Origin: Candidatus Omnitrophota bacterium
GTDB taxonomy: Bacteria; Omnitrophota; Gorgyraeia; 2-02-FULL-51-18
Direction of reading: 5' to 3'
DNA: 64,000 nt
Assembly (NCBI GenBank): GCA_945877765.1
Contig: CAMDWQ010000002.1
Coordinates: 14,464-78,463 of the forward strand
The notes below the pieces were generated by a model. The model was not told the origin of the DNA, ran no database searches, and saw only the letters and a program-made list of their open reading frames with translations. Below are positions 5,238 through 63,846 of this stretch, piece after piece. A program made the translations under genes and the position numbers. Within the stretch, counting starts at the first letter, position 1; every line of letters starts with the position of its first letter.

Positions 5238-5655
5238 ATTGACACGCCGGCCAACGGGGGGCAGATCGCAAGGGTTTACACTGCTGGAAATATTGATTAC
5301 CCTAATGATTTTGGGGGTACTTGCGGGACTTGCGATACCGATTTATTCCCGGCGAGTTGAAGAGAGCCGCGCCAACGAAGCCACTGTCAATCTCAACGCT
5401 ATCTACATGGGCCAAAAAATATACGCGCTCAATAATAGCGGAGATTACTGGAATGGCGGGGTGGGTCCTGCCGTTGCGGATATCAACACCACTCTAAATA
5501 TTGACATCAATCCGCAATTTTATGACATTGCTTCTATCAGTGCCGCTAACGGGGCAAACCCCAAAACATTTGTCGCCGTTGCAACTCGAAATAATACTTC
5601 GGGCGGGGATGGGGTTACTAGTTATAGGATCAATGACGCTGGTGTGGTGAGTTAG
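5227..5655 (+). CDS. Prepilin-type protein 3
   Basis: '...RSQG|FTLLEILITLMILGVLAGL' prepilin N-terminus. 142 aa. Confidence 0.8.
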   Translation: MMGRLTRRPTGGRSQGFTLLEILITLMILGVLAGLAIPIYSRRVEESRANEATVNLNAIYMGQKIYALNNSGDYWNGGVGPAVADINTTLNIDINPQFYDIASISAANGANPKTFVAVATRNNTSGGDGVTSYRINDAGVVS

Positions 5656-6047
5656 TGTTGACTAGAAATTGTCGCCCGGTCAATGTCACGAAAAATCAAA
5701 ATGGTTTTTCGTTGGTTGAGGTGGTTGTGGCGTTAATTGTTCTTGCCGTGCTTTCTGTGGGTTTGCTTCGAGGTGCAATTTCAGCGCACCGCTCGGTTCC
5801 TGCTCAATTGGATCGCAGCGGCGCTCAAAACCTCGGGCGTGCGATTATTGAGTCTCTTTATGAGGCTGTGCGTCAGGACTGGTGGAATTTAACCGACCGT
5901 CCGCTAAGCGTAGGCACTCCCTTGGGCGCCCCCCGCGCAACGACCGTTGCTGGCAGGACTTACACCTCTGAATATTCGGTCGCCGCTGTCAACTTGGCTG
6001 GAGATCCCGGTCAGGATTATCGCAAGATCGAAGTCACTGTTCGATGA
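5655..6047 (+). CDS. Minor pseudopilin (GspI/PilV-like)
   Basis: '...NQNG|FSLVEVVVALIVLAVLSVGLL'. 130 aa. Confidence 0.7.
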   Translation: MLTRNCRPVNVTKNQNGFSLVEVVVALIVLAVLSVGLLRGAISAHRSVPAQLDRSGAQNLGRAIIESLYEAVRQDWWNLTDRPLSVGTPLGAPRATTVAGRTYTSEYSVAAVNLAGDPGQDYRKIEVTVR

Positions 6048-8703: not shown

Positions 8704-9522
8704 ATGAGTCTATCTAAACCCAAGAATACTCAAATCGTAATAATCTTCGTCGCAGTCCTTTTGGCTGGCTCAACCGTGTTTTTTTATCAAACTAGCGCAT
8801 CCGAGCGCCAAAATCGCATTCAAAAAGAGCAACAGCTGTCTCAAAAGCAAGTAGAATTGGATAACACAGAAGCACAGATTGCGGAACTCAACAAAGCCAT
8901 GGAAGATCTAAAAGAGACATCAAACAAGACCGTTGAAACTCTCCAGAGCAAAGAAGAGGCGCTAAAAGACTTTGAGGGGCAGTTGAGCAGAATGAAAAAA
9001 GAGGTTGAAAGCTTAAGCCGGGACAAAGAGCAGGCTGTTAACGACAGCTTTAAGAAAGACGAAGTAATTGCTGAGTTTACCGAACGCTTAGCTGTGCTTC
9101 AACGCGAGAAAAAGATCCTTTTGGGTAAACAAGAAGAGCTTACCAAGGAATTGAATGATCTCAAAAATCAAACGTGGCAAGGAAGCTCTTCGTCAGCTGC
9201 CGATGAGCCCTATTCGGTGGTTTCTAGCAATGATTCGGGAGAAGGAATTGATACCGTTAGCTTAGGTAAAATTGTTGTGTCTAAAAAAACGAGTAGCGCT
9301 GCGCGCGTTCAGCAGGTCAATCCGGTCTATGATTTTATTGTTATTGATGCGGGGAAGAATGAAGGAATGAAGGATGGTGCCATTGTCAATATTGTTCGGA
9401 ATAATACCTTGATTGGAAAAGCAGTCATTCGTCACACGCGCCCAGATGTATCTGCCGCAACACTTCTACCTGAATGGAAAAAATTGCCAGTTCAAAAGGG
9501 CGACCTAGTCACTAAGCTCTAA
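8704..9522 (+). CDS. Bitopic coiled-coil membrane protein (N-terminal TM anchor, long coiled coil, C-terminal beta-rich domain; GspM/PilO/GspC-like topology)
   Basis: N-terminal TM 'IVIIFVAVLLAGSTVFFY', heptad-rich Glu/Lys region, Ser-rich linker, and C-terminal 'DFIVIDAGKNEGMKDGAIVNIV...GKAVI' beta-barrel-like (SAF/FlgA-like) segment. Confidence 0.35.
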   Translation: MSLSKPKNTQIVIIFVAVLLAGSTVFFYQTSASERQNRIQKEQQLSQKQVELDNTEAQIAELNKAMEDLKETSNKTVETLQSKEEALKDFEGQLSRMKKEVESLSRDKEQAVNDSFKKDEVIAEFTERLAVLQREKKILLGKQEELTKELNDLKNQTWQGSSSSAADEPYSVVSSNDSGEGIDTVSLGKIVVSKKTSSAARVQQVNPVYDFIVIDAGKNEGMKDGAIVNIVRNNTLIGKAVIRHTRPDVSAATLLPEWKKLPVQKGDLVTKL

Positions 9523-49267: not shown

Positions 49268-49702
49268 ATGTCGACTGAAACGGTTAAAGTAAAACCCACA
49301 CTTCTTAAAGCCTCGACCGACAAAGTAATGACTCGGGGCGGACGCAAGGAAGCCACGGCGCGCGTACAACTTTTTAAAGGCACGGGAATCATTCAGGTCA
49401 ACAAAAGAGCGCTCAAAGCTTATTTTGGTCGACCGACACTTGAAATGGTCATTCGCCAGCCTTTGGAAGCCATCCAGTTGCAGGACAAGGTCGATGTGAT
49501 TGCCAATGTCCGTGGCGGCGGTCTCTCAGGTCAAGCAGGAGCCATTCGTCATGCTATTTCACGGGCACTGGTTCAATTTGATGCCACACTCAAGCCTCTT
49601 CTGCGCAAGGGAGATTTTCTCATGCGCGATGACCGCATGAAGGAACGTAAAAAGTATGGACGCAAGGGCGCACGCCGTCGCTTCCAGTTCTCCAAGCGTT
49701 AA
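49268..49702 (+). CDS. rpsI: 30S ribosomal protein S9
   Basis: '[19 protein letters not shown]...[25 protein letters not shown]' canonical C-terminus. Confidence 0.95.
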
Positions 49703-49757
49703 AGTGAGGCAAATCCCGAGTTTCATTTTTTAATTAAATTGTTGTAAGTGAAGGAAC

Positions 49758-49794
49758 AGCCGAGCTTTATGCTCGGCTTTCTTTTTTATTTTTT
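49758..49794 (+). terminator. Rho-independent terminator after rplM-rpsI
   Basis: Stem 'agccgagc'-tttat-'gctcggct' followed by 'ttctttttttattttt'. Confidence 0.7.
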
Positions 49795-49874
49795 GACATG
49801 CACGACAAAGCTAATTATAATGAACACTTCGCGGATAAAATAGCACAGATAATACAGAGCAGTGTCAGAGTAGT

Positions 49875-49944
49875 GTCATCCCCGAATTTTCTTATCGGGG
49901 ATCATGTATTAGTTTGATTCCCGATTAAAACTTTCGGGAATGAC
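49875..49944 (+). repeat. Bipartite palindromic repeat unit, copy A (upstream of argC)
   Basis: 'gtcatccccga-N10-tcggggatcatg...tgattcccga-N10-tcgggaatgac'. Ends 13 nt before ATG 49958, with GGGAG in between. Confidence 0.8.
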
Positions 49945-49957
49945 GATTGGGAGCGGA

Positions 49958-50983
49958 ATGAAAAAACTTCGAGTAGGTATTGTCGGCGCCACCGGATATA
50001 CCGGTGAAGAAATCGTACGCATCCTCTCCAAACACCCACACGTTGAAATCACTTACGTCTCCGGAAAAGAAGACCGTGAGATTAGGATTCAGGAAATCTT
50101 TCCTTACCTGTCTGGAAGATTGGATTTGGAATGCAAGGCTTTTTCGCAGGAGGAAGCCACCGAAAAAACAGATCTTGTTTTTTTATCCCTGCCGCACACC
50201 GTTTCGATGCAAGCCGCACCCTTATTTTTGAAAGCGGGGAAAAAAGTCATTGATGTCAGCGCTGATTACCGGCTAAAAGATCTGGCCGTCTATGAAAAAT
50301 TTTATAAGGTTGAGCACAAAGACCCGGCGAATTTAAAACACGCGATTTATGGTTTACCTGAAATCAACCGGGAAAAAATTCGGAAAGCCTCGCTTGTGGC
50401 CAATCCTGGCTGCTATCCGACCGGCGCCATTCTTGGGCTTTTGCCCGGAATCAAGGGCGGGTTTTTCGATCTAGACCGCATTTGCATCGACGCCAAGAGC
50501 GGAGTCACCGGGGCGGGGAGAAAAGCGGAAAAATCGCTCAACTTTTCGGAAGTCAATGAGTCTTTCAAAGCTTATAAACTTTTTGAGCATCAGCACGTCC
50601 CTGAAATCGATCAGGAGCTCAGCCGCTTTTCAAAAAAAGAAGTCAGCGTTGTTTTTGTTCCGCATCTTTTGCCCATCAATCGGGGCATTTTAAGCACGAT
50701 GTATATTCCGCTGAAAAAAAAGACGACGACGCAGGATCTTTGCACGGCGTATCAAAAATTTTATAAAAATGAGCCGTTTGTAAAAGTGTACGGCGGCGGC
50801 CGTTTGCCCGAATTAAAACATGTGGCGCATACCAATTTTTGCGATATTGGCCTTAAAGTCAACGAAGCCAAGTCGCTCGCCGTTGTCGTGGCGGCGATTG
50901 ATAATTTGACCAAAGGTGCCGCAGGGCAGGCCGTGCAGAACATGAATATCATGTCCGGTTTTGACGAGCGCGAGGGCTTTTAA
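49958..50983 (+). CDS. argC: N-acetyl-gamma-glutamyl-phosphate reductase
   Basis: 'KLRVGIVGATGYTGEE' NAD-binding motif and active-site 'ANPGCYPT'. The upstream ATG 49940 lies inside the repeat and was not used. Confidence 0.93.
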   Translation: MKKLRVGIVGATGYTGEEIVRILSKHPHVEITYVSGKEDREIRIQEIFPYLSGRLDLECKAFSQEEATEKTDLVFLSLPHTVSMQAAPLFLKAGKKVIDVSADYRLKDLAVYEKFYKVEHKDPANLKHAIYGLPEINREKIRKASLVANPGCYPTGAILGLLPGIKGGFFDLDRICIDAKSGVTGAGRKAEKSLNFSEVNESFKAYKLFEHQHVPEIDQELSRFSKKEVSVVFVPHLLPINRGILSTMYIPLKKKTTTQDLCTAYQKFYKNEPFVKVYGGGRLPELKHVAHTNFCDIGLKVNEAKSLAVVVAAIDNLTKGAAGQAVQNMNIMSGFDEREGF

Positions 50984-52207
50984 ATGAAAGTCATTCACGG
51001 CGGCATCACGGCGGCAACAGGATTTAAAGCCAGCGGGCTTTATTGCGGCATTAAAGTTTCGAAGAAAAAAGATCTTTCGCTTATTTATTCTGAAAAAATT
51101 TGCGATGCGGCCGGCTCCTTTACAACCAATAAAGTCCAAGCGTCTTGCGTGGTGGTAAATAAAGAGCACTTAAAGGACCATAAAGCACAGGCGATTATTG
51201 CCAATTCGGGAAACGCCAATTGCATGACCGGCGAGAGTGGTTTTGAAAATACCAGAACCATGGCGTCTGTGACAGCTCGGTTACTTAAAATTCGTAAGAA
51301 GGATGTCTTGGTTGCGTCAACCGGTGTCATTGGGAAGCCGTTGCCGATTAAAAAAATTATAGAAGCAGCGCCGCAGTTGGTGGGAGATCTGAGCAAAAAA
51401 GGCGGAGAGCATGCCGCTGCGGGTATTTTGACCACGGACCGCTTAAATAAAGAAATGGCAGTGGAGTTTTTGGTCGGTGCAAAGAGTGTACGTGTAGGTG
51501 CTATCGCCAAAGGAGCCGGGATGATTCATCCGCAGATGACTGTCCACGGGCCCAAACACGCGACCATGCTTTGTTTTGCGACAACCGATGCGTTGATTGC
51601 GCCGACGGCACTGCGCGCGGCTTTGGACCGGTCCATAGGCAAATCTTTTAATGCCATCACCATTGACGGTGATATGTCGACGAATGACATGGTGTTGGTG
51701 CTGGCCAACGGCATGGCAGGGAACAAAAAAATAATCGAGGGCACCAAAGAGTTTCGTTTGTTTGTCCGCGCACTCGAAACCATTTTTTTACACCTGGCCA
51801 AGGAAATGGTACGGGACGCCGAGGGTGCCACTAAATTTGTGGAAGTGGCGGTTAAAAATGCTTCCAGCGCCGAAGACGCAATTAATACGGCCCGTTCCGT
51901 TGCCAGTTCCAATCTTTTTAAGTGCGCTTTGTTTGGTTCAGATCCCAACTGGGGACGCATCGCTGCTGCTGCCGGATATTCTGGCGCTCATCTGGATCCC
52001 TGGAAGCTTTGTATTTATTTGGGAAAAGAACTCGTTCTCAAAAATGGCGGCAGGGTCAAACAAAAAGCAGCCGTGCTAAACCGCGTTTTTGCGCAAAAAA
52101 ATATTAAAATTACCGTCGACTTGGGATTGGGAAAGTACAGCGCCAGCGCTTATACGTGTGATTTTTCAACCGGGTATGTGCGGATTAATTCCGCGTACAG
52201 AACTTAA
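50984..52207 (+). CDS. argJ: Bifunctional glutamate N-acetyltransferase / amino-acid acetyltransferase ArgJ
   Basis: 'GFKASGLYCGIK', and autoproteolysis region 'FATTDALI' (ATML/TTDA-type). 407 aa. Confidence 0.93.
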   Translation: MKVIHGGITAATGFKASGLYCGIKVSKKKDLSLIYSEKICDAAGSFTTNKVQASCVVVNKEHLKDHKAQAIIANSGNANCMTGESGFENTRTMASVTARLLKIRKKDVLVASTGVIGKPLPIKKIIEAAPQLVGDLSKKGGEHAAAGILTTDRLNKEMAVEFLVGAKSVRVGAIAKGAGMIHPQMTVHGPKHATMLCFATTDALIAPTALRAALDRSIGKSFNAITIDGDMSTNDMVLVLANGMAGNKKIIEGTKEFRLFVRALETIFLHLAKEMVRDAEGATKFVEVAVKNASSAEDAINTARSVASSNLFKCALFGSDPNWGRIAAAAGYSGAHLDPWKLCIYLGKELVLKNGGRVKQKAAVLNRVFAQKNIKITVDLGLGKYSASAYTCDFSTGYVRINSAYRT

Positions 52208-52245
52208 TTATCAGGGCGCTGTTTCGTTTGGACACGAAATAGGTT

Positions 52246-52275
52246 TGATCCCCGATTAAAGATTTCGGGGATGAC
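52246..52275 (-). repeat. Half-copy (single hairpin) of the palindromic repeat, copy B, inverted orientation (upstream of argB)
   Basis: 'tgatccccgattaaagatttcggggatgac'. The flanking 'gatgacactgtgctgacatt' mirrors the 5' flank of copy A. Confidence 0.65.
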
Positions 52276-52303
52276 ACTGTGCTGACATTGGAGAGGGTAA
52301 ACC

Positions 52304-53167
52304 ATGGATGATATTATTAAAAAAGCGGATGTGTTGATTGAAGCGCTTCCGTTTATCCAGAGTTTTTATGACAAGACGGTTGTTATTAAATATGGCGGTG
52401 CGGTTCTCACGGATACCGAGATACGGCGCAACGTGCTTGAGGACATTGTGTTTATGAGCTACGTGGGCATGCGGCCGGTGCTGGTTCACGGTGGCGGCCC
52501 GTACATCAGTAAGCGGTTGGAGTCTACCGGTAAAATACCCAAATTTGTGCAGGGTTTTCGTGTCACGGACGAAGAGACCATCGAAGTAGTCGAGGAAGAG
52601 CTCACCAAAATTAATCGCGAGATTGTCCGCGAAATCATTTCTTTAGGGGGGAGTGCGATTTCCCTTTCGGGCAGAGAAGATCATCTGATCGAAGTTAAAA
52701 AGCACGCAGACATCGACGGTGAGGACATCGGTTTTGTTGGGGAAGTTACCAAAGTGAATGGCGATGTGATTTCAAAAATGATCACTAGCGACATCATCCC
52801 GGTCATCTCACCGATGGGTATCGGCAAAGACGGATTGACGTACAACGTGAACGCGGACCAGGCGGCTGCGGAAATTGCGCGCAATCTCAGTGCTCTCAAA
52901 TTCATTTTGCTGACGAACGTCCGCGGTATTTTAAAAAATCTTGAGGACCCCGAGTCCGTTATTTCTCACATCACCATCGCCGAAGTGGATGAGTACATGG
53001 AAAAAAAAGTCATTGGCGGCGGCATGATACCAAAGGTGCGTGCTTGTATGCGTGCGCTCGACCGTGGAGTTAAGAAAACCCATATTATTGACGGGCGGAT
53101 TCCTCATGGACTCCTGCTTGAAATTTTCACCGATAAGGGCATTGGCACCGAAATTGTCAGGCGCTAG
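52304..53167 (+). CDS. argB: Acetylglutamate kinase
   Basis: 'VIKYGGAV...PVLVHGGGP...' amino-acid kinase motifs. 287 aa. Confidence 0.93.
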   Translation: MDDIIKKADVLIEALPFIQSFYDKTVVIKYGGAVLTDTEIRRNVLEDIVFMSYVGMRPVLVHGGGPYISKRLESTGKIPKFVQGFRVTDEETIEVVEEELTKINREIVREIISLGGSAISLSGREDHLIEVKKHADIDGEDIGFVGEVTKVNGDVISKMITSDIIPVISPMGIGKDGLTYNVNADQAAAEIARNLSALKFILLTNVRGILKNLEDPESVISHITIAEVDEYMEKKVIGGGMIPKVRACMRALDRGVKKTHIIDGRIPHGLLLEIFTDKGIGTEIVRR

Positions 53168-53179
53168 AGAGAAAATCTG

Positions 53180-54367
53180 ATGGATTATAGAAAAATAATA
53201 CGGCTCTATTACGATTACGTCGTTCCCTGCTATACCAAGTTTCCGCTGGTTTTGCAGAAGGGCCGCGGGACTCGCGTGTGGGATTCTCATGGCGACGAAT
53301 ACCTTGATTTTTTTCCCGGATGGGCAGTTAGCGGGATTGGGCATTGCCATAAGCGCGTGACGGAGGCTATCAAGCGTCAGGTCGAGCAGCTGATGCACGT
53401 GTCCAATAACTATTACCATGCCGAACAGGGAAAGCTGGCGGAGCTGATTATTCGCCACTCGTTTCCAGGGAAGGTTTTTTTCTGTAACTCCGGCGCGGAA
53501 GCTAATGAAGCGGCGTTTAAACTTGCTCGCAAATTTGGAAATCCTGCACGCAACGAAATTATCGCGATGGAGCGTTCTTTTCATGGCAGGACGCTTGCCG
53601 CGGTCACAGCGACAGGAACGGCAAAGTATCACGAGGGATTCGAGCCTCTGGTGCCAGGTTTTAAACATGTGCCATTCAACGATTTTGCCGCGCTTGAGCG
53701 AGCGGTGTCCTCCAAGACAGCCGCTATTATCATGGAGCCTATTCAAGGGGAAGGCGGCATTCATGTGGCGGATTCTCACTATTTATCGAACGTGAGGCGT
53801 CTTTGCAATGACAAAAAGATTCTTTTGATATTTGATGAGGTGCAGACCGGGATGGGGCGTACCGGCAGACTGTTTTGTTTTAAAAATTTTGGGATTGAGC
53901 CGGATGTGATGACGCTGGCGAAGTCGCTTGGCAGTGGTTTTCCGATCGGCGCCATGGTGGTCAAAAAGCAATATGCCGATATTTTGCAGCCGGGAATGCA
54001 TGCCACCACATTTGGCGGAAGCCCGCTGGCTTGTGTGGCGGCATTGGCGACATTTGAAGCGATTGAAAAAGAAAAACTCTTGAGTAATGCGGTCGTTACT
54101 GGTTCCCACTTATTTAAAAAATTGGGAGAGCTTAAAAAGAAGCATTCGATCATTCGCCAAGTGCGCGGGATGGCGCTCATGGCGGGAATTGAGCTTGAAA
54201 TTGAGGGAAAGGCGATTTATGAGCAGTGTTTACAGAGAAAACTTCTCATTAATTGCACACAAGGAAACGTTCTTCGTCTCATGCCTCCGTTGGTGGTGAA
54301 AGAAAAAGAGATTGATCGGGCGATTCAGATTTTAGATGAAGTCCTGGCAGGTCAGGCAGGAAAATGA
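53180..54367 (+). CDS. argD: Acetylornithine aminotransferase
   Basis: Class III aminotransferase. PLP-lysine region 'IFDEVQTGMGRTG...LAKSLGSGFPIGA'. Confidence 0.9.
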   Translation: MDYRKIIRLYYDYVVPCYTKFPLVLQKGRGTRVWDSHGDEYLDFFPGWAVSGIGHCHKRVTEAIKRQVEQLMHVSNNYYHAEQGKLAELIIRHSFPGKVFFCNSGAEANEAAFKLARKFGNPARNEIIAMERSFHGRTLAAVTATGTAKYHEGFEPLVPGFKHVPFNDFAALERAVSSKTAAIIMEPIQGEGGIHVADSHYLSNVRRLCNDKKILLIFDEVQTGMGRTGRLFCFKNFGIEPDVMTLAKSLGSGFPIGAMVVKKQYADILQPGMHATTFGGSPLACVAALATFEAIEKEKLLSNAVVTGSHLFKKLGELKKKHSIIRQVRGMALMAGIELEIEGKAIYEQCLQRKLLINCTQGNVLRLMPPLVVKEKEIDRAIQILDEVLAGQAGK

Positions 54368-54393
54368 TTCGTAAAAAAAGGGAGTAGGATTCC

Positions 54394-55404
54394 ATGAAAA
54401 AGAAATCAAGCAAGAAGTCCAAATCTAAAAAAATTTCTTCGGGGGCCCGCAAACCGGCGGTCCTGTTTGAAGCGAAAGATTTTCTGAGTTTAAAAGAAGT
54501 CCACGCATCGGATTTGGAGACTTTATTTAAGCTGGCGGACAAAATGAAAAAAAATCCCGCGCAGTTTTTGGGAAAATTAAAAGGCAAGTCACTGGCGCTT
54601 CTATTCCAGAAGCCATCGATCCGTACGCGCGTGTCTTTCCAGGTAGGAATGGCTCAGCTGGGTGGAAACTGTGTCTACATGGACCCCCAGGAAATGCCGC
54701 TAGGCGAGCGTGAGTCCATCAAGGACGTGGCAAGAGTTTTGTCGCGCTATTGCGATGCGGTGGTGACGCGTACTTATTCGCACACGGCGTTGGAAGATTT
54801 TGCCAAATTTGCCACGGTTCCGGTGATCAACGGCTTGAGTGATTCTTACCACCCCTGCCAGACGATTGCGGACCTCTTTACGATTCGCGAAAAATTTGGT
54901 GATTTGAAGAAAATCAATATTGCCTATATCGGCGATAGCAACAATGTTCTGAACTCTCTTTTGTACGGCGTTGCCAAAGTGGGTGCGAATCTATCCATTG
55001 CGTCTCCCCGTGGCTATGAACCGAATGAAGAGATCTTAAAAGACCTAAAGCTTCAGTGCAAGGATTCCGGCGCTAAAATTGCCGTGTGTAACAATCCGTT
55101 TAACGCGATCAAAAACGCCCATGTCGTTTACACGGACGTCTGGGTGAGTATGGGCCAGGAAAAGCAGCGCGACCAGCGGTTGCGTGATTTCCAGCCGTTT
55201 CAAGTCAATGGCGCGATTGCCAGTAAAGCACCCAAGGACTCGATTTTTATGCACTGTTTGCCGGCGCATCGCGGCGAAGAAATCACCGACGAGGTTATTG
55301 AGCATCCGCGTTCGGCTATTTTTGACCAAGCTGAAAACAGGCTTCACACACAGAAAGCGCTGCTGTATTTGCTTTTGACAAGAAAAACTAAAAAGAAAAA
55401 GTAA
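54394..55404 (+). CDS. argF: Ornithine carbamoyltransferase
   Basis: 'STRTR' carbamoyl-phosphate motif ('PSIRTRVSF'), 'HPCQ', 'HCLPAHRGEE'. Confidence 0.93.
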   Translation: MKKKSSKKSKSKKISSGARKPAVLFEAKDFLSLKEVHASDLETLFKLADKMKKNPAQFLGKLKGKSLALLFQKPSIRTRVSFQVGMAQLGGNCVYMDPQEMPLGERESIKDVARVLSRYCDAVVTRTYSHTALEDFAKFATVPVINGLSDSYHPCQTIADLFTIREKFGDLKKINIAYIGDSNNVLNSLLYGVAKVGANLSIASPRGYEPNEEILKDLKLQCKDSGAKIAVCNNPFNAIKNAHVVYTDVWVSMGQEKQRDQRLRDFQPFQVNGAIASKAPKDSIFMHCLPAHRGEEITDEVIEHPRSAIFDQAENRLHTQKALLYLLLTRKTKKKK

Positions 55405-55415
55405 TCACACAAGGT

Positions 55416-55486
55416 GTCATCCCCGAGATCATTAATCGGGGATCATGTCTTAAGTTTGATTCCCGATAAAAAAATTCGGGAATGAC
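55416..55486 (+). repeat. Palindromic repeat unit, copy C1 (tandem pair upstream of argG)
   Basis: 71-nt unit matching the family consensus. Separated from C2 by 12 nt. Confidence 0.8.
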
Positions 55487-55498
55487 GTAGAATGGTAT

Positions 55499-55568
55499 GT
55501 CATCCCCGAAATCTTTTATCGGGGATCATGTGTAGGTTTGATTCCCGATTAAAACTTTCGGGAATGAC
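55499..55568 (+). repeat. Palindromic repeat unit, copy C2
   Basis: 70-nt unit. Ends 13 nt before ATG 55582, with GGGAGAG in between. Confidence 0.8.
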
Positions 55569-55581
55569 ATTGGGAGAGAAA

Positions 55582-56751
55582 ATGAAAAAAATTGTTCTAG
55601 CATATTCCGGCGGTTTAGACACTTCGGTCGCGATTAAGTGGCTCAAAGACAAAGGCTATGAAGTGATCGCCTACATGGCGGATGTGGGTCAAGAAAAAAC
55701 CACCACCGCGGCGATTGCGCGCGCGAAAAAAGCCGGCGCCTCCAAAGTTGTCGTGAAGGATCTCAAAAAGAAATTTGTGACGGACTATGTATGGCCGGCG
55801 CTAAAGGCCGGAGCTGTTTACGAAGGCCGTTACACGCTAGCCACCGCCTTGTCACGTCCCTGTATTGCGGCCGAACAAGTCGCGGTTGCACACGCCGAAA
55901 AGGCCACCGCAGTCGGTCACGGCTGTACCGGGAAGGGCAACGATCAGGTACGCTTTGAGGTCACGATCCAAGCGCTCGATAGCTCACTTGAGATTTTAGC
56001 GCCTTTGCGCGAATGGGAGTTTAAGTCGCGCGATGAGGAAATTGATTACGCGATCAAGCACCGGATTCCTATTGACGTCACGAAGAAAAGCTCGTATTCC
56101 ATCGACAAGAACGTGTGGGGCGTGTCGGTCGAGTCTGGCGTTCTCGAAAATCCTAATATAGAACCGCCGCAGGATTCATTCCAGTGGACGCGCGGCGCCG
56201 AAAAAAGAAATCTTAAAGATCGCGTTGTTACGATCGAATTCAACAAAGGTATCCCCGTTGGCCTCGACGGCAAAAAGCTCGGGCCGCTTGAGCTCATCGC
56301 CAAACTCAATGATACCGGGGCGCAATACGGCATCGGCCGCATGGACATGATCGAAAATCGTCTCGTCGGCATCAAATCCCGCGAGACATACGAAGCGCCG
56401 GCCGCGACGATTCTGATGCTTGCACACGCGGATCTTGAGAGCCTCGTGCTTGACCGCGAACTTTTGCATTACAAGCAGGGGATTTCGCAGAAGTACGCAG
56501 ATCTTGTGTATTACGGTCTGTGGTTTACGCCAATGCGTGAGGCGCTGGACGCGTTCGTTGAAACCACGCAGAAAAAAGTCACTGGCAAAGTCCGTGTGCG
56601 CCTGCGCAAATTCAGCGCGAACATTGTCGGCCGCACCTCACCGTTTTCGCGTTATAACGAGAACCTGGCGACGTACACCGCCAAGGATACGTTTGATCAC
56701 CGGCTCGCCAAGGGGTTCATCGACCTTTGGGCTCTGCCTTACAGGAAATGA
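55582..56751 (+). CDS. argG: Argininosuccinate synthase
   Basis: 'KIVLAYSGGLDTSV' PP-loop and 'GCTGKGNDQVRFE'. The longer ORF from 55492 would read through the repeats. Confidence 0.93.
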   Translation: MKKIVLAYSGGLDTSVAIKWLKDKGYEVIAYMADVGQEKTTTAAIARAKKAGASKVVVKDLKKKFVTDYVWPALKAGAVYEGRYTLATALSRPCIAAEQVAVAHAEKATAVGHGCTGKGNDQVRFEVTIQALDSSLEILAPLREWEFKSRDEEIDYAIKHRIPIDVTKKSSYSIDKNVWGVSVESGVLENPNIEPPQDSFQWTRGAEKRNLKDRVVTIEFNKGIPVGLDGKKLGPLELIAKLNDTGAQYGIGRMDMIENRLVGIKSRETYEAPAATILMLAHADLESLVLDRELLHYKQGISQKYADLVYYGLWFTPMREALDAFVETTQKKVTGKVRVRLRKFSANIVGRTSPFSRYNENLATYTAKDTFDHRLAKGFIDLWALPYRK

Positions 56752-56759
56752 CGCGAAGC

Positions 56760-56830
56760 GTCATCCCCGAAATATTTAATCGGGGATCATGTGTTGGGTT
56801 TGATTCCCGATAAAAACTTTCGGGAATGAC
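56760..56830 (+). repeat. Palindromic repeat unit, copy D (upstream of argH)
   Basis: 71-nt unit. The additional 7-bp palindrome atgacgc/gcgtcat spans the argG stop codon. Confidence 0.8.
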
Positions 56831-56844
56831 AGGGAGTATTAAAA

Positions 56845-58221
56845 ATGGCAAAAAAATTATGGGGCGGGCGCTTTCGCAAGAAAATAGACCCGGATTTTGA
56901 CAAATTTAGCGCCTCGTTCCGCTGGGATCATCGGCTTAGCGGCTATGATCTGGCAATCGACGCGGCGCATGCCAAAGCTTTGAAAAAATGTGGTGTTTTG
57001 ACTTCATCAGAAGCCAAAAAAATACTTGCCGCGGTAGCGAGTTTGCAAAAAAAGGCCGCAGCGGGAACCTTAAAACTTGATAAGTCCTCCGAAGACGTGC
57101 ATTCGGCGATCCAGGCCGAATTGAAGAAAATTGCGGGTCCGGCCGCGGATAAAATTCATACGGGCCGCTCGCGCAATGACTTAGTGAGTCAGAGCAGCCG
57201 GCTTTATGTCAAAGACCATTTGGTGCGCATCGCGCGCCTTTTGACCGTTTTACAGAAAGAGATCGTCGCGAAGGCCGCGCAGTCCGAGAAGGTTCTTTTG
57301 CCCGGCATGACGCATCTTCAGCCAGCGCAGGTTCTCTCACAGGCGCATATTTTTCTATCGTACGTTGAGATGTTGGAGCGCGACCGCCTGCTTGCCGGGG
57401 GAGCCCTGAAGCTCGCCGACCTATGCGTGCTAGGTAGCGGTGCATTGGCCGGCACAACGTATGCGCTCGACCAGAAGCTGATCGCCCGCGAATTGGGCCT
57501 TTCGGCAATCACGCGCAACAGCTACGATGTTGCGGGCGACCGGGACTTCGTCGCGGCAGCACTGTATGTCACATGGTCTATTGGGACGCATCTTTCGCGT
57601 ATTGCCGAAGATCTCATGATTGGCCAGACGCGCGGTTTTATGACTGTCGATATGGACCAGGCTTTTTGCACGGGCAGTTCCATGATGCCGCAGAAAAAAA
57701 ACGCTGATTTCACCGAATTGGTACGCGGTGCCGCGGGAGTATTTGCGGGTAATTTTACGGGCATGGCAGTGACGCTTAAAGGATTGCCAACGTCGTACAA
57801 CCGCGATCTCCAGTGGGATAAAAAATATCTTTTTGAATCCGTGGAAACAGCCGAAGAAATTTTGACTATTTTTATACGCCTGATGAAAACGCTTCGAATC
57901 AACGCCCCTGCGGCAGAAAAGTTTTTAAAGGACGAGAGTTTGTATGCCACCGATCTTGCGGATTATCTGGTCGGGCGGGGCGTGCCGTTTGGGACCGCGC
58001 ATGAACAGGTAGGGAAGATTGTCAGTTTTTCAGAAGAAAAAGGGATCGCTATTTCCAAAATTGGGCTAGATCTTTTAAAACAGTTCGCGCCAAAGCTTGA
58101 GGCGGATGTTTACGATTTATTTACCCCCGAGCATTCGGTGCGAATGAAAAAAACCAGCGGCAGCACTCATCCGGCGGAGATCGCAAAACAAATTAATTTT
58201 TGGAAACATAAGTTAAAATAA
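56845..58221 (+). CDS. argH: Argininosuccinate lyase
   Basis: 'GRSRNDLV' and 'GSSMMPQKKNAD' fumarate-lyase signature. Confidence 0.95.
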   Translation: MAKKLWGGRFRKKIDPDFDKFSASFRWDHRLSGYDLAIDAAHAKALKKCGVLTSSEAKKILAAVASLQKKAAAGTLKLDKSSEDVHSAIQAELKKIAGPAADKIHTGRSRNDLVSQSSRLYVKDHLVRIARLLTVLQKEIVAKAAQSEKVLLPGMTHLQPAQVLSQAHIFLSYVEMLERDRLLAGGALKLADLCVLGSGALAGTTYALDQKLIARELGLSAITRNSYDVAGDRDFVAAALYVTWSIGTHLSRIAEDLMIGQTRGFMTVDMDQAFCTGSSMMPQKKNADFTELVRGAAGVFAGNFTGMAVTLKGLPTSYNRDLQWDKKYLFESVETAEEILTIFIRLMKTLRINAPAAEKFLKDESLYATDLADYLVGRGVPFGTAHEQVGKIVSFSEEKGIAISKIGLDLLKQFAPKLEADVYDLFTPEHSVRMKKTSGSTHPAEIAKQINFWKHKLK

Positions 58222-58223
58222 CT

Positions 58224-58286
58224 GTCATTCCCAAATTTTTTATCGGGAATCAAACTTGATCCCCGATTAAAGATTTCGGGGATGAC
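58224..58286 (-). repeat. Palindromic repeat unit, copy E, inverted orientation (upstream of lysA)
   Basis: 'gtcattccc-aaattttttatcgggaatcaaac ttgatccccgattaaagatttcggggatgac' is the reverse complement of the consensus. Confidence 0.78.
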
Positions 58287-58299
58287 ACTCGAGGAGTTT

Positions 58300-59565
58300 A
58301 TGCATCGATTTCATTATAAAGGCAAAGAGCTTTACGCGGAAAATGTAGCGGTCCGCAAAGTGGCTCAGGCTGTGGGGACACCTTTTTACCTCTACAGCAT
58401 CGGCACTTTTCTTGACCATTATTTCAAGCTTCAGGAAGCGTTTAAGCCGCTCAATCCCCTGATCTGTTTTTCTACCAAGGCCAACTCCAATTTGACGGTT
58501 CTCAAAGCACTCGTCAACCAGGGATCCGGTCTTGATATTGTCTCGGGCGGTGAGCTGGCACGAGCCAAAAAAGTCGGTGTGGATCCCCAGAAAATCGTGT
58601 ACGCCTCTGTCGGAAAGTCTCAAGCAGAGATTGAGGAAGCGATACGTTCCAAAATTTTAATGTTCAATGTGGAGTCTGTGCAGGAGTTGGAAGTAATCAA
58701 CGCCGCAGCTGCTAAGCTAAAAACAAGCCAGAAGATTGCCATCCGCATCAATCCGGACGTTCAGCCGCACACGCATCATTACATCACCACCGGATCCAAG
58801 GAGAATAAATTTGGGTTGGACATGGAGACCGCCTATAAGCTTTTTGTGGAGGCTTATCGCTACCCCAATTTGCAATTTGCCGGGATTCATATCCATATTG
58901 GTTCGCAAATCACCGAGTCCCGGCCATTTGTGCAAGCCATCAAAAAATGTCTTCAATTTATCGATAGCGTCAGCTACAACGGCAGTGCGGTTGAATACTT
59001 AAATATCGGCGGAGGGCTTGGCATCGTGTATTCCAAGGAAAAACCGCAGACAGCCCAGCAGTTTGCCAATGTCGTGGTGCCCCTTTTTAAAAAAAACCAG
59101 GGCCTTAAGATTGTTCTTGAGCCCGGAAGATTTATTTCGGGAAACAGCGGCATCTTGGTGACGAAGGTGATGTATGAGAAGATCGCCAAGACAAAATCTT
59201 TTTTGATTGTGGACGCGGCGATGAATGATTTGATTCGGCCGGCATTTTACGGCGCGTATCATGAAATTGTGCCGGTCACCAAGAAATCGGGAAAAAAGAA
59301 GTTTGCTCAAGCCGATATTGTGGGTCCCATTTGCGAAAGCGGCGATTTTTTGGCAAAAAATAGGAAGATGGATTCTGCCGCTGTGGGGGATCTGCTGGCC
59401 GTAATGTCATGCGGGGCTTATGGGTTTGTGATGTCGAGCAATTACAATACACGGCCGCGCGTGCCGGAGGTGGTGGTGAAGGGCGCAAAATTTTATACCG
59501 CGCGCCGACGCGAAACACTTGATGATCTTTTTCGTGTCGAAAAAATAGTCCAAGAGGTGGTTTGA
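58300..59565 (+). CDS. lysA: Diaminopimelate decarboxylase
   Basis: Orn/DAP/Arg decarboxylase family: PLP-Lys 'FSTKAN', 'GGGLGI', 'EPGRFISG', 'CESGD'. Start chosen at ATG 58300 after 'GAGGAG'. The ATG at 58282 lies inside the repeat. Confidence 0.9.
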   Translation: MHRFHYKGKELYAENVAVRKVAQAVGTPFYLYSIGTFLDHYFKLQEAFKPLNPLICFSTKANSNLTVLKALVNQGSGLDIVSGGELARAKKVGVDPQKIVYASVGKSQAEIEEAIRSKILMFNVESVQELEVINAAAAKLKTSQKIAIRINPDVQPHTHHYITTGSKENKFGLDMETAYKLFVEAYRYPNLQFAGIHIHIGSQITESRPFVQAIKKCLQFIDSVSYNGSAVEYLNIGGGLGIVYSKEKPQTAQQFANVVVPLFKKNQGLKIVLEPGRFISGNSGILVTKVMYEKIAKTKSFLIVDAAMNDLIRPAFYGAYHEIVPVTKKSGKKKFAQADIVGPICESGDFLAKNRKMDSAAVGDLLAVMSCGAYGFVMSSNYNTRPRVPEVVVKGAKFYTARRRETLDDLFRVEKIVQEVV

Positions 59566-59568
59566 TCC

Positions 59569-60378
59569 ATGGCCAAAGAAATCTCATTCACAAAAATGGT
59601 GGGAGCTGGAAACGACTTTATCGTGATAGACAATCGCACGGGTGTTGTTGCCGCGAGATCTCGTGCCGCTAAAAAATGGTGTGACCGTAAAAATTCTATC
59701 GGCGCGGATGGTGTCCTTTTTTTAGAAAAATCTCGACAGGCCAATTTTCAGATGCGGATAGTCAATTCAGACGGCAGCGAAGCGGAAATGTGCGGAAACG
59801 GAATTCGTTGTATTGCCAAATTTGCGCAAGACCAGAAGTTGGTCGGTAAAAAATTTAAAATCCAGACGATTGCCGGTATCATTGATGTCGAAATCAAAGG
59901 GGCTATTGTGAAGGCGCGGATGGTGGATCCCAAAGACATGAAACTTAACCTCAACATTCTTTTAAATGATCAATCCGCGGCGATGAGCTTTGTGAATACC
60001 GGGGTGCCTCATGCCGTTTGTGTGGTGAAGTCTCTCAAAGCGGTTGATGTTGATGGGTTGGGACGCGCAATCCGCACGCATGATTATTTTAAGCCTCGCG
60101 GGACCAACGCCAATTTTATTCAATTTAATCTCGACCGTTCGATTGACATCCGCACGTACGAACGCGGTGTTGAGGGCGAGACGCTTTCCTGTGGCACAGG
60201 CTCTACGGCCGGCGCTTTGATTGCCGCGGCCACCAAAGATCTTCCATCGCCGGTGTTGGTTCGGACAAAAAGCGGGGAAACTTTAAAGATTTATTTTTCA
60301 AAAGAGGGGCAGAACTTCCACGATGTGTATCTGGAAGGCCCTGTTCAAAAAAGTTTCGAGGGGAGGGCGACACAATGA
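59569..60378 (+). CDS. dapF: Diaminopimelate epimerase
   Basis: '[15 protein letters not shown]', and catalytic Cys motifs 'MCGNGIRC' and 'CGTGSTA'. Confidence 0.9.
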
Positions 60379-61253
60379 AGTTTCATGGAGCGATGACCGC
60401 ACTTGCCACACCGTTTAAAAATGGAAAAGTGGATGAAAAAACACTGGCTGCTTTAGTGCGCCGGCAAATCAAAGCGGGGATTGACGGACTCATTCCTGTG
60501 GGGACGACGGGCGAATCTCCCACGCTTTCGCATCTTGAGCATGAGCGCGTAATTGAGATTACGGTCGAGGCCGCTGAAAAAAAAGTCCCGGTGATTGCCG
60601 GAACAGGCTCTAACAGCACGGCAGAGGCGATTTCTTTAACCAAATTTGCAAAAAAAGCCGGCGCTTCCGCGGCACTCATTGTGACGCCTTATTACAACAA
60701 GCCGACACAGGAAGGGATTTACCGTCATTACGAGGCGATTGCCAAGGCGGTGGACATTCCAATCATTCTTTATAATATTCCAGGGCGTTCGGTGGTGAAT
60801 GTCGCTCCCGAAACGGTGGCGCGGCTCTCCAAGATTCCGACGATCGTCGCGGTTAAAGAATCCACAGGAAATATGGATCAGGCCTCGCATATTTTATCGC
60901 TTTGCGATATCACAGTTCTTTCGGGCGACGATTCGCTGACCCTGCCGCTTTTGGCTCTAGGCGCTAAGGGTGTTATTTCGGTAGCGGCCAATATTGTGCC
61001 GGAAGCGGTTTCAGAATTGGTCGATTCATTTTTTGTCGGCAATCTTTCAAAGGCGCAGGCGCTCCATCACAAACTTTTTTCGTTGTGCCGGGCTTTGTTT
61101 GTCGAAACCAACCCGATTCCAGTAAAGCGCGCGATGAAGTTGTTGGGGCTTTGCGAAGGGGACGTTCGTTTACCTCTGTGTGCCATGCAGCCGCAAAATG
61201 AAAAAATATTGATTCAGGCACTTAAGGATTTTGGTTTAAGGATAAAGGGTTAA
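60375..61253 (+). CDS. dapA: 4-hydroxy-tetrahydrodipicolinate synthase
   Basis: 'ALATPF...[15 protein letters not shown]', Schiff-base Lys region 'VAVKESTGN'. ATGA overlap with dapF. Confidence 0.93.
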
Positions 61254-61256
61254 TCA

Positions 61257-62051
61257 ATGATTAAAATTGCCGTCAACGGAGCTGTGGGAAGAATGGGAAG
61301 CCGCATTTTAGCGCTGGCTTCCGAAGCCCCCAAAGATTTTGAGATTGCCGGCGCTTTTGAGCATGAAAAAAGTGGTCAACGCGGACAGCGGCTTTCACTG
61401 GGCAAGCAGAGTCTCTTGGTTGAGGGAATAAACAAATCCTCTTTGAAGGGAAAGGGAGTCTTGATTGATTTTTCAGGGCCCACAGGGACGTCGGCTGCGC
61501 TTGTTCATGCAGCAAAGGCAGGCTGGGGGGTTGTGGTGGGTACGACAGGGCTTGAGCCAGCGATCCAAAAAAGCATACAAAAATTTTCACGAACAATCCC
61601 CATTGTTTATTCAGCCAACATGAGCGTTGGGGTAAACCTTATCGCAAAGCTCGTGGCGCTGGCGGCTGAAAAACTAGGCAAAGATTTTGATATCGAAATC
61701 ACAGAGGCGCACCACCGTCATAAAAAAGATGCCCCCAGTGGTACGGCGCTTCTTTTGGCCGAGGCGATTACGCGGGCAAAGGGCTGGCAGCTTGAAAAAG
61801 TGTTAAAGATGCGCAAACCCGGAAAATCTGAAACCGAGCGCTCTAACGAAGAAATCGGCATGCAGGTAATCCGAGCCGGAGAAATTGTCGGCGACCATAC
61901 CGTGCTTTTTGCAGGCCTAGCCGAAACCATCGAGATCACGCATCGCGCCCAGTCGCGCGACACGTTTGCCCGCGGCGCACTCACAGCGGCAACTTTTTTA
62001 TCCAAAAAGAAATCCGGCCTTTTCACGATGGCGGATGTCCTAGGAATTTAA
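61257..62051 (+). CDS. dapB: 4-hydroxy-tetrahydrodipicolinate reductase
   Basis: 'IKIAVNGAVGRMGSRI' NAD(P)-binding and 'EAHHRHKKDAPSGTA' DapB signature. Confidence 0.9.
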   Translation: MIKIAVNGAVGRMGSRILALASEAPKDFEIAGAFEHEKSGQRGQRLSLGKQSLLVEGINKSSLKGKGVLIDFSGPTGTSAALVHAAKAGWGVVVGTTGLEPAIQKSIQKFSRTIPIVYSANMSVGVNLIAKLVALAAEKLGKDFDIEITEAHHRHKKDAPSGTALLLAEAITRAKGWQLEKVLKMRKPGKSETERSNEEIGMQVIRAGEIVGDHTVLFAGLAETIEITHRAQSRDTFARGALTAATFLSKKKSGLFTMADVLGI

Positions 62052-62056
62052 ATCTA

Positions 62057-63274
62057 ATGACACATCCTTTTTTTCTTGAAGAATCTAATCGCCTGAAAGC
62101 ACTGCCTCCGTATCTTTTTCTCGAGATTGACCGCGCCAAACGGCGGGCGATTGAAAAAGGGGTCAAAGTGATTGATTTCGGCATTGGCGATCCTGATCAG
62201 CCAACACCCAAATATATTCTGGATGTCATGCAGCGCGTGGTCAAAGACCCCAAAAATCATCATTATCCTCTGGACCGCGGAAGCCACGCCTTTCGGTTGG
62301 CGGCATCCGTATGGTTAAAAAAACGATTTGGAAGCTATTTTGACCCGGACACTGAAATTTTGCCGCTCATTGGCTCGAAGGAAGGGATTGCTCATCTGCC
62401 ATTAGCCTTCATCAATCCCGGTGATGTCGTGCTGGTTCCTGATCCTTGTTATCCGCCGTACAAAAGCGGCACATTGTTTGCCGGCGGGCACGCGCATCTT
62501 ATGCCGCTGAAGGAAGAAAACGCATTTCTGCCAGATTTTGAAGCGGTCCCCGCAGAAGTTTTAAAAAAATCAAAAATAATTTTTGTAAACTACCCCAATA
62601 ATCCCACGGGTGCTGTAGCGACGCGCCCCTTTTACGAGAAGCTGGTCAAGTGGGCACACACACACAAAATCCTCATTGCCTCGGATCTGGCTTATTCGGA
62701 GGTATTTTTTACAAAAGAAAAACCGCTGAGCATTTTTGAAGTTCCGGGGGCCAGAGAGGTAGCGATTGAATTTCACTCTCTCTCAAAGACTTGTAATATG
62801 ACTGGCTGGCGGATTGGTTTTGCCGTTGGAAGAGCCGAAGCGATTTCTTCGCTCTTGCGGGTGAAATCCAACCTTGATTCGGGTGTTTTTACCGCGATAC
62901 AAATGACCGCGATTGAGGCGCTCAAAAATAGTTTTGGGTTTTCCAAGAAAACCAACATCATGTATCGCCGCCGCCGCGATCTTTTGGTGGCTGGCTTAAA
63001 AGAGCTGGGTTTCCCCATAAAACCCAATCAGGCCTCCTTTTATTTGTTTACTCGCCTTCCGGCGGGGTCAACGGATTCTACTACCTATTGTAAAAATCTT
63101 TTGGAGAAAACGGGCATTGTCGCAACGCCTGGAGTGGGCTTTGGAGCGCCGGGCGAGGGCTATATTCGTTTTACGTTGACGGTGCCAGAAGCTGAAATTC
63201 GCGAAGCCATCATACGGATGAAAAAATATTACGCAGTGTCATCCCCGAAATCTTTAATCGGGGATCATGTCTAG
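62057..63274 (+). CDS. dapL: LL-diaminopimelate aminotransferase-like class I aminotransferase (DapL-type); last 12 codons + stop lie inside repeat copy F
   Basis: 'SKEGIAHLPLAFINPGD', 'FVNYPNNPTG', PLP-Lys 'SLSKTCNMTGWRIG'. Contiguous with dapB/dapA/dapF/lysA. C-terminal 'VSSPKSLIGDHV*' is encoded by 'gtgtcatccccgaaatctttaatcggggatcatgtctag'. Confidence 0.78.
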   Translation: MTHPFFLEESNRLKALPPYLFLEIDRAKRRAIEKGVKVIDFGIGDPDQPTPKYILDVMQRVVKDPKNHHYPLDRGSHAFRLAASVWLKKRFGSYFDPDTEILPLIGSKEGIAHLPLAFINPGDVVLVPDPCYPPYKSGTLFAGGHAHLMPLKEENAFLPDFEAVPAEVLKKSKIIFVNYPNNPTGAVATRPFYEKLVKWAHTHKILIASDLAYSEVFFTKEKPLSIFEVPGAREVAIEFHSLSKTCNMTGWRIGFAVGRAEAISSLLRVKSNLDSGVFTAIQMTAIEALKNSFGFSKKTNIMYRRRRDLLVAGLKELGFPIKPNQASFYLFTRLPAGSTDSTTYCKNLLEKTGIVATPGVGFGAPGEGYIRFTLTVPEAEIREAIIRMKKYYAVSSPKSLIGDHV

Positions 63275-63307
63275 GTTTGATTCCCGATAAGTACTTTCGG
63301 GAATGAC
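63238..63307 (+). repeat. Palindromic repeat unit, copy F (overlaps dapL 3' end, upstream of folK)
   Basis: 70-nt unit matching the consensus. Confidence 0.8.
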
Positions 63308-63345
63308 AAAGGGAGTCACAAAGGGAATGCAAATGGAAGGGTGCT

Positions 63346-63846
63346 ATGGCCATCGTTTATATAGGTGTGGGAAGCAATCTTGGGGACCGCCAGTCTAACA
63401 TTGACCGCGCTTTCGCGTTTCTTCGCGAAGACGAAGACATCGAAGTCCTGGCAATTTCAAACCTTGTGGAGACTGATTTTGAAGGGCAGGGTCCCGAACA
63501 AGGCAAATTTTTAAATGGGGCCTTTAAAATTATAACCGATCTCTTGCCTTTGGACCTTCTAAGCCGTCTCAAAGCGGTGGAAAGACGGCTCGGCCGTGTG
63601 AAGGCTCAGGGGGTAAATCTGCCGCGTACGCTGGATCTGGATATTCTTTTCTATGATGACGTGGTGATTGTGGACGGAAAGACTCTTCAGATTCCACATC
63701 CAAGGCTCGAGGAACGTCTCTTTGTCCTGGATCCATTGGCCCAAATAGCTCCGGATCTTGTTCATCCACGCAGCGGCAAGACGATACAAGATCTTCACCG
63801 GGACCTTTTACATCATGCAAGTTCTCTCAAGCCCCAAAACTCTTAA
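63346..63846 (+). CDS. folK: 2-amino-4-hydroxy-6-hydroxymethyldihydropteridine pyrophosphokinase (HPPK)
   Basis: '[13 protein letters not shown]...', '[12 protein letters not shown]', '[15 protein letters not shown]'. Confidence 0.9.

Follow-up and report, generated by a model that had tools for sequence, protein, structure and literature searches.

Repetitive extragenic palindromic (REP) sequences are short, highly similar palindromes with a common consensus that lie outside genes and are transcribed with the genes flanking them (PMC12306157). The CGTC superfamily of REPs was described by Di Nocera, De Gregorio & Rocco (2013, PMC3733652) and includes dRS3 of Neisseria and RPE-4/RPE-6 of Rickettsia. 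Its units carry CGTC, or often TGTC, as a terminal tag and have an 8-9-bp stem with A/T pairs at positions 1-2, a 4-5-nt loop (other loop lengths occur in a few species) and a short tail with the consensus CCA. They are found mostly as head-head dimers with the tags outside, often as heterodimers. Copies are numerous and dispersed within a genome, mainly where the adjacent genes are unidirectional or convergent and near the upstream stop codon; some overlap the end of an open reading frame (ORF), and no dedicated transposase is known for them (PMC3733652). The elements considered here are seven bipartite palindromes of ~70 nt in a 64-kb stretch of contig CAMDWQ010000002.1 (the window), where they are set among genes of arginine, lysine and folate biosynthesis. 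Most probably (about 0.85 in our estimation), these elements are head-head heterodimers of a CGTC/TGTC-tagged REP, a generic repeat that was inserted into the spacers and the 5' untranslated region (UTR) of this operon. The repeat would be a CGTC-type REP with an unusually long loop, in an organism that is Omnitrophota-like as judged from the names of homologues. Such organisms belong to the Planctomycetes-Verrucomicrobia-Chlamydiae (PVC) group and were outside the 2013 survey (PMC3733652).

REPs of Escherichia coli are comparable in several respects. As in the bacterial interspersed mosaic elements (BIMEs) that they form, to which a dimer in the window corresponds, the units are imperfect palindromes in inverted pairs with two unit types per dimer, and they are intercistronic or 3'-terminal in operons, with which E. 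coli REPs are, and the window elements presumably would be, co-transcribed. Unlike the window elements, E. coli REPs have a GTAG tag and are associated with a REP-associated tyrosine transposase (RAYT, or TnpA-REP), and there is no sequence similarity between the two. The window elements resemble GTAG REPs and REPtrons in being short hairpins of high identity that spread in a lineage and whose unit hairpin is kept by compensated changes; unlike in GTAG REP/RAYT systems, the tag is [C/T]GTC, and a RAYT was not detected among the window ORFs or, by a crude motif scan, at the related loci. E. coli REPs stabilise mRNA, and those <16 nt from a stop codon lower the translation of the upstream gene; REPs <=15 nt from a stop are reported to be enriched near genes of arginine biosynthesis and of purine/pyruvate metabolism (PMC12306157). 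Three of the window copies similarly begin 2-11 nt past a stop and one overlaps a stop, and the reported enrichment near arginine genes in E. coli is a curious parallel to the cluster in this arg operon. Leader RNAs of amino acid operons (riboswitches, T-boxes and attenuators) are likewise structured RNAs upstream of biosynthetic genes. Leaders, though, are found at the same orthologous positions in related genomes, depend on the strand, are usually single in an operon and sequester a terminator or ribosome-binding site (RBS), none of which is true of the elements described here.

Structure and location of the elements

The seven copies listed in an initial annotation of the window are borne out by reading of the sequence and by repeat detection. 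Their 13 hairpin units form five full dimers, a degenerate dimer in inverted orientation and an inverted unit on its own. All 13 lie within 49875-63307 at junctions of a 13-gene operon, and the rest of the window has none. A unit is basically a 30-nt hairpin with a [C/T]GTC tag (CGTC in element E and TGTC in elements A, B, C, D, F and G), an 8-bp stem AT(C/T)CCCGA, an A/T-rich loop of 9 nt and a CA tail. The stems ATCCCCGA/TCGGGGAT and ATTCCCGA/TCGGGAAT are perfect in 12 units, and the tail reads CA(T), as in ...TCGGGGAT-CAT, which is similar in kind to CCA but is not the consensus. Twelve zero-mismatch matches to ATYCCCGA-N9-TCGGGRAT occur in the window, against 0.14 expected by chance, and all of them are at 49878-63304; the 13th unit, at 58227-58250 in element F, has an 8-nt loop and one stem mismatch. 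The tagged arm GTCATYCCCGA has 12 exact matches and one one-mismatch match (in element F, at 58224) in the block, while outside the block there are two one-mismatch matches against 1.9 expected by chance. Loops of 9 or 10 nt had been given in the initial annotation; the 9-nt loop holds for 12 units, whereas a pattern search found no unit in the window with a 10-nt loop, the remaining loop being 8 nt. Units with a 4-nt loop were likewise absent from the window, and no other family of hairpin repeats was found in window positions 1-49700.

Six of the seven copies are head-head heterodimers that pair a CCCC unit with a TTCCC unit. Mutual identity among the window dimers is 84-94%, the unit stems being invariant and the loops variable, and the two units are joined by a short, conserved linker of 8-9 nt (TGTCTAGGTT). 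The elements thus fit the general definition of REPs in being palindromic, short and highly similar, with one consensus. The features shared with CGTC REPs are the unpaired [C/T]GTC tag, the 8-bp stem that opens with A-T and T-A pairs, the head-head dimers with tags outward and heterodimer stems that differ by a compensated change, the occurrence of single and grouped units, and the lack of a transposase among the window ORFs. The short unpaired tail at the other end is alike in kind, and the copies sampled in the window and at related loci tend to lie between unidirectional or convergent genes near the upstream stop, with some overlapping ORF ends. Loop length, 9 nt, is the clear departure from CGTC REPs; the tail, CA(T) rather than CCA, and the short conserved linker also differ.

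Element A (49875..49944, + strand) is a head-head heterodimer whose CCCC unit precedes its TTCCC unit; it lies in the 5' UTR of argC and ends 13 nt before the ATG at 49958. Element B (52246..52275, - strand) is a single inverted unit of the CCCC type in the argJ/argB spacer that ends 28 nt before the start codon. Elements C (55416..55486, + strand) and D (55499..55568, + strand) are dimers in tandem, separated by 12 nt, of which C begins 11 nt past the argF stop and D ends 13 nt before the argG ATG at 55582. The argG/argH spacer is filled by the CGTC-tagged dimer E (56760..56830, + strand), which lies 8 nt past the stop and 14 nt before the ATG. Element F (58224..58286, - strand) is an inverted dimer in the argH/lysA spacer, 2 nt past the stop and 13 nt before the ATG at 58300; its left, TTCCC unit is degenerate, with the 8-nt loop and a G>A change, and its linker is shortened. 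Element G (63238..63307, + strand) is a dimer that overlaps the 3' end of dapL and lies 38 nt before folK. Six copies are intergenic, with G as the exception, and all are between the promoter and co-directional genes. The spacings given here use the true start codons and correct the range of 11-38 nt in the initial annotation, in which the confinement of the copies to the biosynthetic block was correctly noted for the window and is statistically non-random.

The host operon, argC-argJ-argB-argD-argF-argG-argH-lysA-dapF-dapA-dapB-dapL-folK (49958..63846, + strand), was identified by NCBIfam equivalog matches. It is preceded by rplM-rpsI (NCBIfam), and all of these genes are on the + strand. An intrinsic terminator after rpsI (49758..49788, + strand; 8-bp stem with 6 GC pairs and a T-run) ends the upstream transcription unit, and a sigma-70-type promoter, TTGACA-N17-TATAAT (49793..49821, + strand), which matches 12/12 consensus positions and is presumably used, follows it. 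All elements are downstream of this promoter on the same strand. Since the terminator and promoter precede argC, element A would be in the 5' UTR and the other elements in intercistronic spacers. Elsewhere in the window, an ORF of 1804 aa at 34058-39472, between a methyltransferase-like gene (Cons_hypoth95, PF03602) and sdh/frd genes, has no Pfam match at E <= 1e-5.

Empty junctions in relatives and copies at other genes

The closest syntenic relatives of the operon, ranked by ArgH identity, are on contigs L175 (83%), L176/L177 (80%) and L178 (75%), and a fourth is on L183 (67%). Gene order is identical in L175, L178, L183 and the more distant L096, and in L176/L177 as far as the contigs reach. 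No units are present in the 7-21 kb of L175, L176/L177, L178 and L183, in which the junctions are 2-26 nt or the genes overlap. In L175, L176/L177 and L178 the argJ/argB junction is 15-26 nt, argF/argG 15-23 nt, argG/argH 20-21 nt, argH/lysA 7-19 nt and dapL/folK 2-4 nt. L175 and L178, whose contigs include the rpsI-argC spacer, share both the terminator and the promoter and have a 5' UTR without element A. L183 is element-free over 21 kb with tight or overlapping junctions, and the same genome has a related dimer upstream of hemB (L011). Subtraction of the elements from the window spacers leaves 15-24 nt, which is the ancestral size, and strong Shine-Dalgarno motifs (GAGGA, GGGGA and GAGGAG) already occur in the relatives. 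Because the closest relatives have the same operon with tight junctions and no elements, and two of them also share the terminator and promoter, this comparison shows the arg-lys-folK copies to be insertions in one lineage only, into an operon that was ancestrally compact.

Every strain-level contig recovered in look-ups with ArgH, ArgB, ArgG and FolK has the same elements, without presence/absence polymorphism, and the C-D tandem is present in strain contig L184. A protein query for read-through gene calls with element-encoded tails (VIPEIFNRGSC...) found none. A scan of JGI metagenomes for ArgG relatives, in which the best match was 61% identical, served as negative background and as the source of L096; 806 kb around 80 other argG loci contained a single clear CGTC-type unit, besides one match to the pattern that is doubtful. 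Other palindromes occur at sites of this operon in relatives. In the argC 5' UTR of L178 (~3290-3330), the place of element A, a different GC-rich hairpin with a T-run (CCGCGGCAGTCCGCATTTTTTTTGCGGGCGCGGCAG) is located between the conserved promoter and argC and could be a leader or attenuator. In L096, which has a distant syntenic arg-lys operon, a CGTC REP with a 4-nt loop at 4557-4583 supplies the tail (VIPAKAGIQ) and stop of argD, and the 234-nt argF/argG spacer (5515-5748) is a nested palindrome of an unrelated family (minimum free energy -71 kcal/mol, z = -4.9). The palindromes of L096 are independent insertions, and they suggest that junctions of the arg-lys operon tolerate or attract palindromes.

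Members of the family were found at unrelated genes. Among the matches listed, the closest copies are in a related metagenome-assembled genome (MAG), CAZBIH01, which has dimers on at least seven separate contigs, with stems and linker as in the window. Identity to the window copies is 83-96% for the five dimers compared, which equals the closeness of the window copies among themselves. On the five contigs with identifiable neighbours, one dimer is located between an epimerase gene and an asnB-like gene, one follows purD, one is in the gltB 5' UTR, one separates scpA from scpB, and one is next to a nirB-like gene. CAZBIH01 is labelled Planctomycetia; its GltB groups with proteins named Omnitrophica. 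A homologue of this GltB, 89% identical, was found in Logan run ERR5863105 and ENA sample ERZ27280191, both of which hold contigs identical (100%) to the window. The tetranucleotide composition of the gltB contig L195 (18.6 kb) correlates with that of the window at r = 0.967, compared with 0.94-0.96 for known pieces of the same genome, and contig L194 is from the same sequencing run as window-identical contigs. Given the shared samples, the same sources and the composition, L195 and L194 are very likely from the window's organism.

In L195 a head-head dimer of CGTC type with 4-nt loops, ATCCTCGC-GAAA-GCGAGGAT and ATCCCCGC-TTTC-GCGGGGAT, fills the junction between a DHH gene and pepA (3666-3727), with 15 nt left to the start codon and 4 nt to GAGGAG. 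As this classical dimer stands beside the 9-nt-loop family, two CGTC subfamilies coexist. An inverted 9-nt-loop dimer lies 8 nt past a ferredoxin gene and ahead of a terminator, and a trimer (a dimer plus an extra unit) is at 9241-9363, upstream of the gltB promoter. The gltB copies of CAZBIH and L195 are at different positions and so are independent insertions. L194 ends in a dimer that overlaps the stop codon of a GH57 gene. Altogether ~11 sites were observed in ~100 kb sampled of the window's organism.

With one genome taken per species, at least 92 loci from many phyla contain the unit pattern. When 93 elements among the matches listed were crudely classified by context, 66 were away from the edges of their loci and 27 were too near an edge; the 66 comprised 34 between unidirectional genes, 15 convergent, 5 divergent and 12 possibly intragenic, which is typical of REPs. 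The genomes with matches to GTCATYCCCGA-N9-TCGGGRATGAC, MAGs as well as isolates, bear the labels of many phyla and classes, Omnitrophota, Nitrospirota, Ignavibacteria and Gammaproteobacteria among them, and similar loops recur, such as AATGCTTTT. The unit pattern had no matches among IMG/VR viral contigs, and the stem sequence retrieved only irrelevant primer matches from the full-text literature.

Sequences next to the elements are also partly shared. Elements A and B have in common an extended flank outside the tag, CA[AG]TGTCAG...AGTGTCAT, and an extra flank CAGTGTCAG-N3-6-AGTGTCAT, in which a TGTCA motif is reiterated, is found at 49860-49874 and 52276-52290 of the window and at 9219-9240 of L195. 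Because some copies share flank beyond the tag, in one sub-lineage the mobile segment may exceed 70 nt. On the downstream side, four of the five forward copies have GGGAG at a distance of 1-4 nt (window positions 49949, 55572, 56832 and 63311), and A and D share ATTGGGAG...ATGAAAAAA. The CAZBIH copies are without GGGAG, so this motif is not part of the element there. The shared GGGAG could result from selection for a strong RBS after translational coupling was lost, or from ectopic conversion between junctions.

RNA folding and rival explanations

The predicted minimum-energy fold of the dimer RNA is a long hairpin in which arm 1 pairs with arm 4 and arm 2 with arm 3 (-31 to -36 kcal/mol). Folding into two separate hairpins gives about -23.5 kcal/mol per dimer, and in the five full dimers the long hairpin has the advantage by ~8-12 kcal/mol. 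The RBS, or Shine-Dalgarno sequence, is unpaired in the predicted folds of every copy, and sense and antisense RNAs of the dimers fold equally well. The riboregulator-like alternative folds proposed in the initial annotation are possible on paper, but these results speak against such a role, in that one fold is favoured in the full dimers and the RBS is untouched. The Rfam search suggested there matched no family, either at gathering thresholds over the whole window or at E-values up to 1 over 49600-63400, where chance matches of miRNA/sRNA type were the only ones returned. A role as intrinsic terminator or attenuator is rejected, as no T-run follows any copy and a terminator scan called no element. 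The two unit types differ by C-G vs T-A at stem position 3, a change that is compensated inside each unit and leaves a mismatched or wobble pair when the long hairpin forms. In a set of 90 distinct units taken from other genomes, this position is C-G in 43, T-A in 36, C.A in 7 and T.G in 4 (Fisher p = 1e-13). Since stem position 3 covaries across the family, the evolutionarily constrained structure is the 30-nt unit hairpin and not the bipartite fold.

A pathway-specific cis-regulatory module, in which the Arg/Lys/folate genes are co-regulated through the paired hairpins by a trans-acting protein or RNA or by arginine/lysine itself, would agree with the presence of copies, within the window and 82.5 kb of contiguous sequence, in this block only and directly upstream of RBSs, and with the possibility of two alternative folds. 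Such a module is very hard to reconcile with the empty orthologous junctions of the closest relatives, two of which have the same promoter, or with the presence of the family at ferredoxin, gltB, pepA, GH57, purD, scpAB, hemB and asnB-like genes. Moreover, copies B and F are inverted, none of the predicted folds sequesters the RBS, Rfam has no matching family, invariant stems with variable loops are not the pattern of a ligand pocket, and no candidate regulator is encoded in the window; we therefore give this explanation hardly any weight. An ArgR operator (ARG box) or other transcription factor site is also rejected, as the ARG box consensus does not match and the elements are intercistronic and not promoter sites. 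It is slightly less improbable, though still very unlikely, that the 70-nt dimer is a classical miniature inverted-repeat transposable element (MITE), mobilised as a whole, with the 30-nt units serving as terminal inverted repeats for the DDE transposase of an insertion sequence elsewhere. The near-perfect inverted ends, the conserved linker and the occurrence of both orientations would be expected of a MITE, but inspection revealed no target-site duplication at any copy, and no transposase gene with matching ends was seen among the window ORFs or at related loci. A unit can also stand alone (B), form part of a trimer (L195 9241-9363) or have another partner unit (L011 and the end of L194), so the module is the hairpin unit rather than the dimer, and this unit recurs in different phyla as a CGTC-type REP. 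The initial annotation had left open a REP/MITE-like mobile palindrome or a shared cis-regulatory module for Arg/Lys/folate genes; the former is upheld, specifically as a REP, and the latter is not. Hundreds of intergenic copies irrespective of gene function had been named there as the sign of a generic repeat, and copies at unrelated genes were indeed found (L195/L194 and CAZBIH), though not in that number.

Several observations weigh against identification of the elements as generic CGTC-type REPs. The four described CGTC families have loops of 4-5 nt instead of an A/T-rich 9 nt, L195 and L194 are connected to the window through shared samples, the same source pattern and composition, and the copies of the window's organism were counted in ~100 kb. 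Searches of the window ORFs against Pfam found no transposase or RAYT-like gene, a crude regular expression found no ORF with the HUH/Y1 motif of RAYT-like proteins among the 92 loci listed, and strain-level contigs do not differ in the presence of elements. Because no transposase was found and no polymorphism was seen, the argument for mobility is entirely comparative. The GGGAG after four of the five forward copies is a further point of this kind, as is the clustering of the copies. Look-ups with FolK and GspE extended the contiguous sequence by 9.85 kb and 8.7 kb, to a total of 82.5 kb, without further copies, so that a block of 13.4 kb has 6 or 7 insertions and the remaining 69 kb has none (P ~1e-4 to 6e-4 under uniform placement), which would not be expected of a generic repeat placed purely at random. 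The gltB contig L195 is similarly dense in elements. The family is patchy in the window's genome, and confinement to the operon is a matter of patchy insertion and not of pathway specificity; local copying, permissive junctions and selection are possible causes of the clustering.

If selection is the cause, the elements could be exapted REPs, that is, a generic repeat whose copies in this operon are kept as intercistronic modules that set the output of the 13 genes as stabilisers of mRNA segments, as RNase III/E processing sites or as translational uncouplers with a strong GGGAG RBS. The clustering speaks for this explanation, together with the occupation of every junction that had a long enough ancestral spacer, the GGGAG that is absent after the CAZBIH copies, the retention of all copies in all strain-level contigs, the unrelated palindromes at the argD/argF and argF/argG junctions of L096, and the reported enrichment of stop-proximal REPs near arginine biosynthesis genes in E. 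coli (PMC12306157). Four syntenic relatives function without any element, however, local copying or permissive junctions can also produce clustering, and strong Shine-Dalgarno motifs pre-exist in the relatives, and exaptation is accordingly regarded as unlikely. The same low estimate applies to co-option of the REP dimer as an intercistronic expression module, with hairpins at nearly every usable junction of a 14-kb operon that would segment the mRNA and reset translation gene by gene. Were co-option true, the tight clustering and the palindromes of L096 would reflect selection and not insertion bias.

Consequences for annotation and possible effects on expression of the operon

The elements affect how the operon is read from sequence. 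Comparison with relatives places the start codons of argC, argG and lysA at 49958, 55582 and 58300. In-frame upstream ATGs are supplied by the ATGAC ends of elements (49940 and 58282) and, at 55492, by the spacer between C and D, and they lead to falsely long ORFs for argC, argG and lysA. The dapL ORF (62057-63274) reads into element G, such that its last ~12 codons (VSSPKSLIGDHV) and the TAG stop at 63272-63274 are encoded by the repeat, while dapL of the relatives ends ~12 codons earlier and leaves a gap of 2-4 nt to folK. Logan contigs of the window's organism assembled with k=31 (L002, L180, L185, L186, L191 and L194) tend to start or stop inside elements, as shown by coordinates or sequence for L002, L180, L186, L191 and L194. 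The elements therefore distort annotation through false starts, a repeat-encoded tail and stop, and broken assemblies.

Under the preferred reading as generic REPs, copies were inserted into the short spacers between stop codon and RBS and into the 5' UTR of a compact operon, and purifying selection would have left only those insertions that damaged neither the region of the stop codon upstream nor the Shine-Dalgarno sequence downstream. The location of element ends 13-14 nt before start codons, next to the RBS, probably arises because a spacer of 15-25 nt spares the stop and the Shine-Dalgarno sequence only if insertion occurs between them. The elements are probably co-transcribed from the promoter at 49793-49821, each folding into a stable hairpin next to an unpaired RBS. 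If they act as E. coli REPs do, these hairpins may block 3'-to-5' exonucleases and stabilise the upstream segments of the mRNA. The increase in intercistronic distance from ~20 to 78-177 nt would loosen translational coupling, and the downstream genes would therefore depend on their own RBS. The same analogy suggests that elements starting <16 nt from a stop (argF, argG, argH and dapL) could damp translation of the upstream gene. Such effects would be by-products of a generic repeat and not a means of sensing arginine or lysine.

The identification removes the tempting false lead of an arginine/lysine riboregulator. Filled and empty sites are documented for CGTC-type REPs in an uncultured PVC/Omnitrophota lineage, and the form of the unit with a 9-nt loop is spread over many phyla with strong covariation in the stem. 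The dense cluster, limited to one operon, is a natural test case for the effects of REPs on the stability of polycistronic mRNA and on translational coupling.

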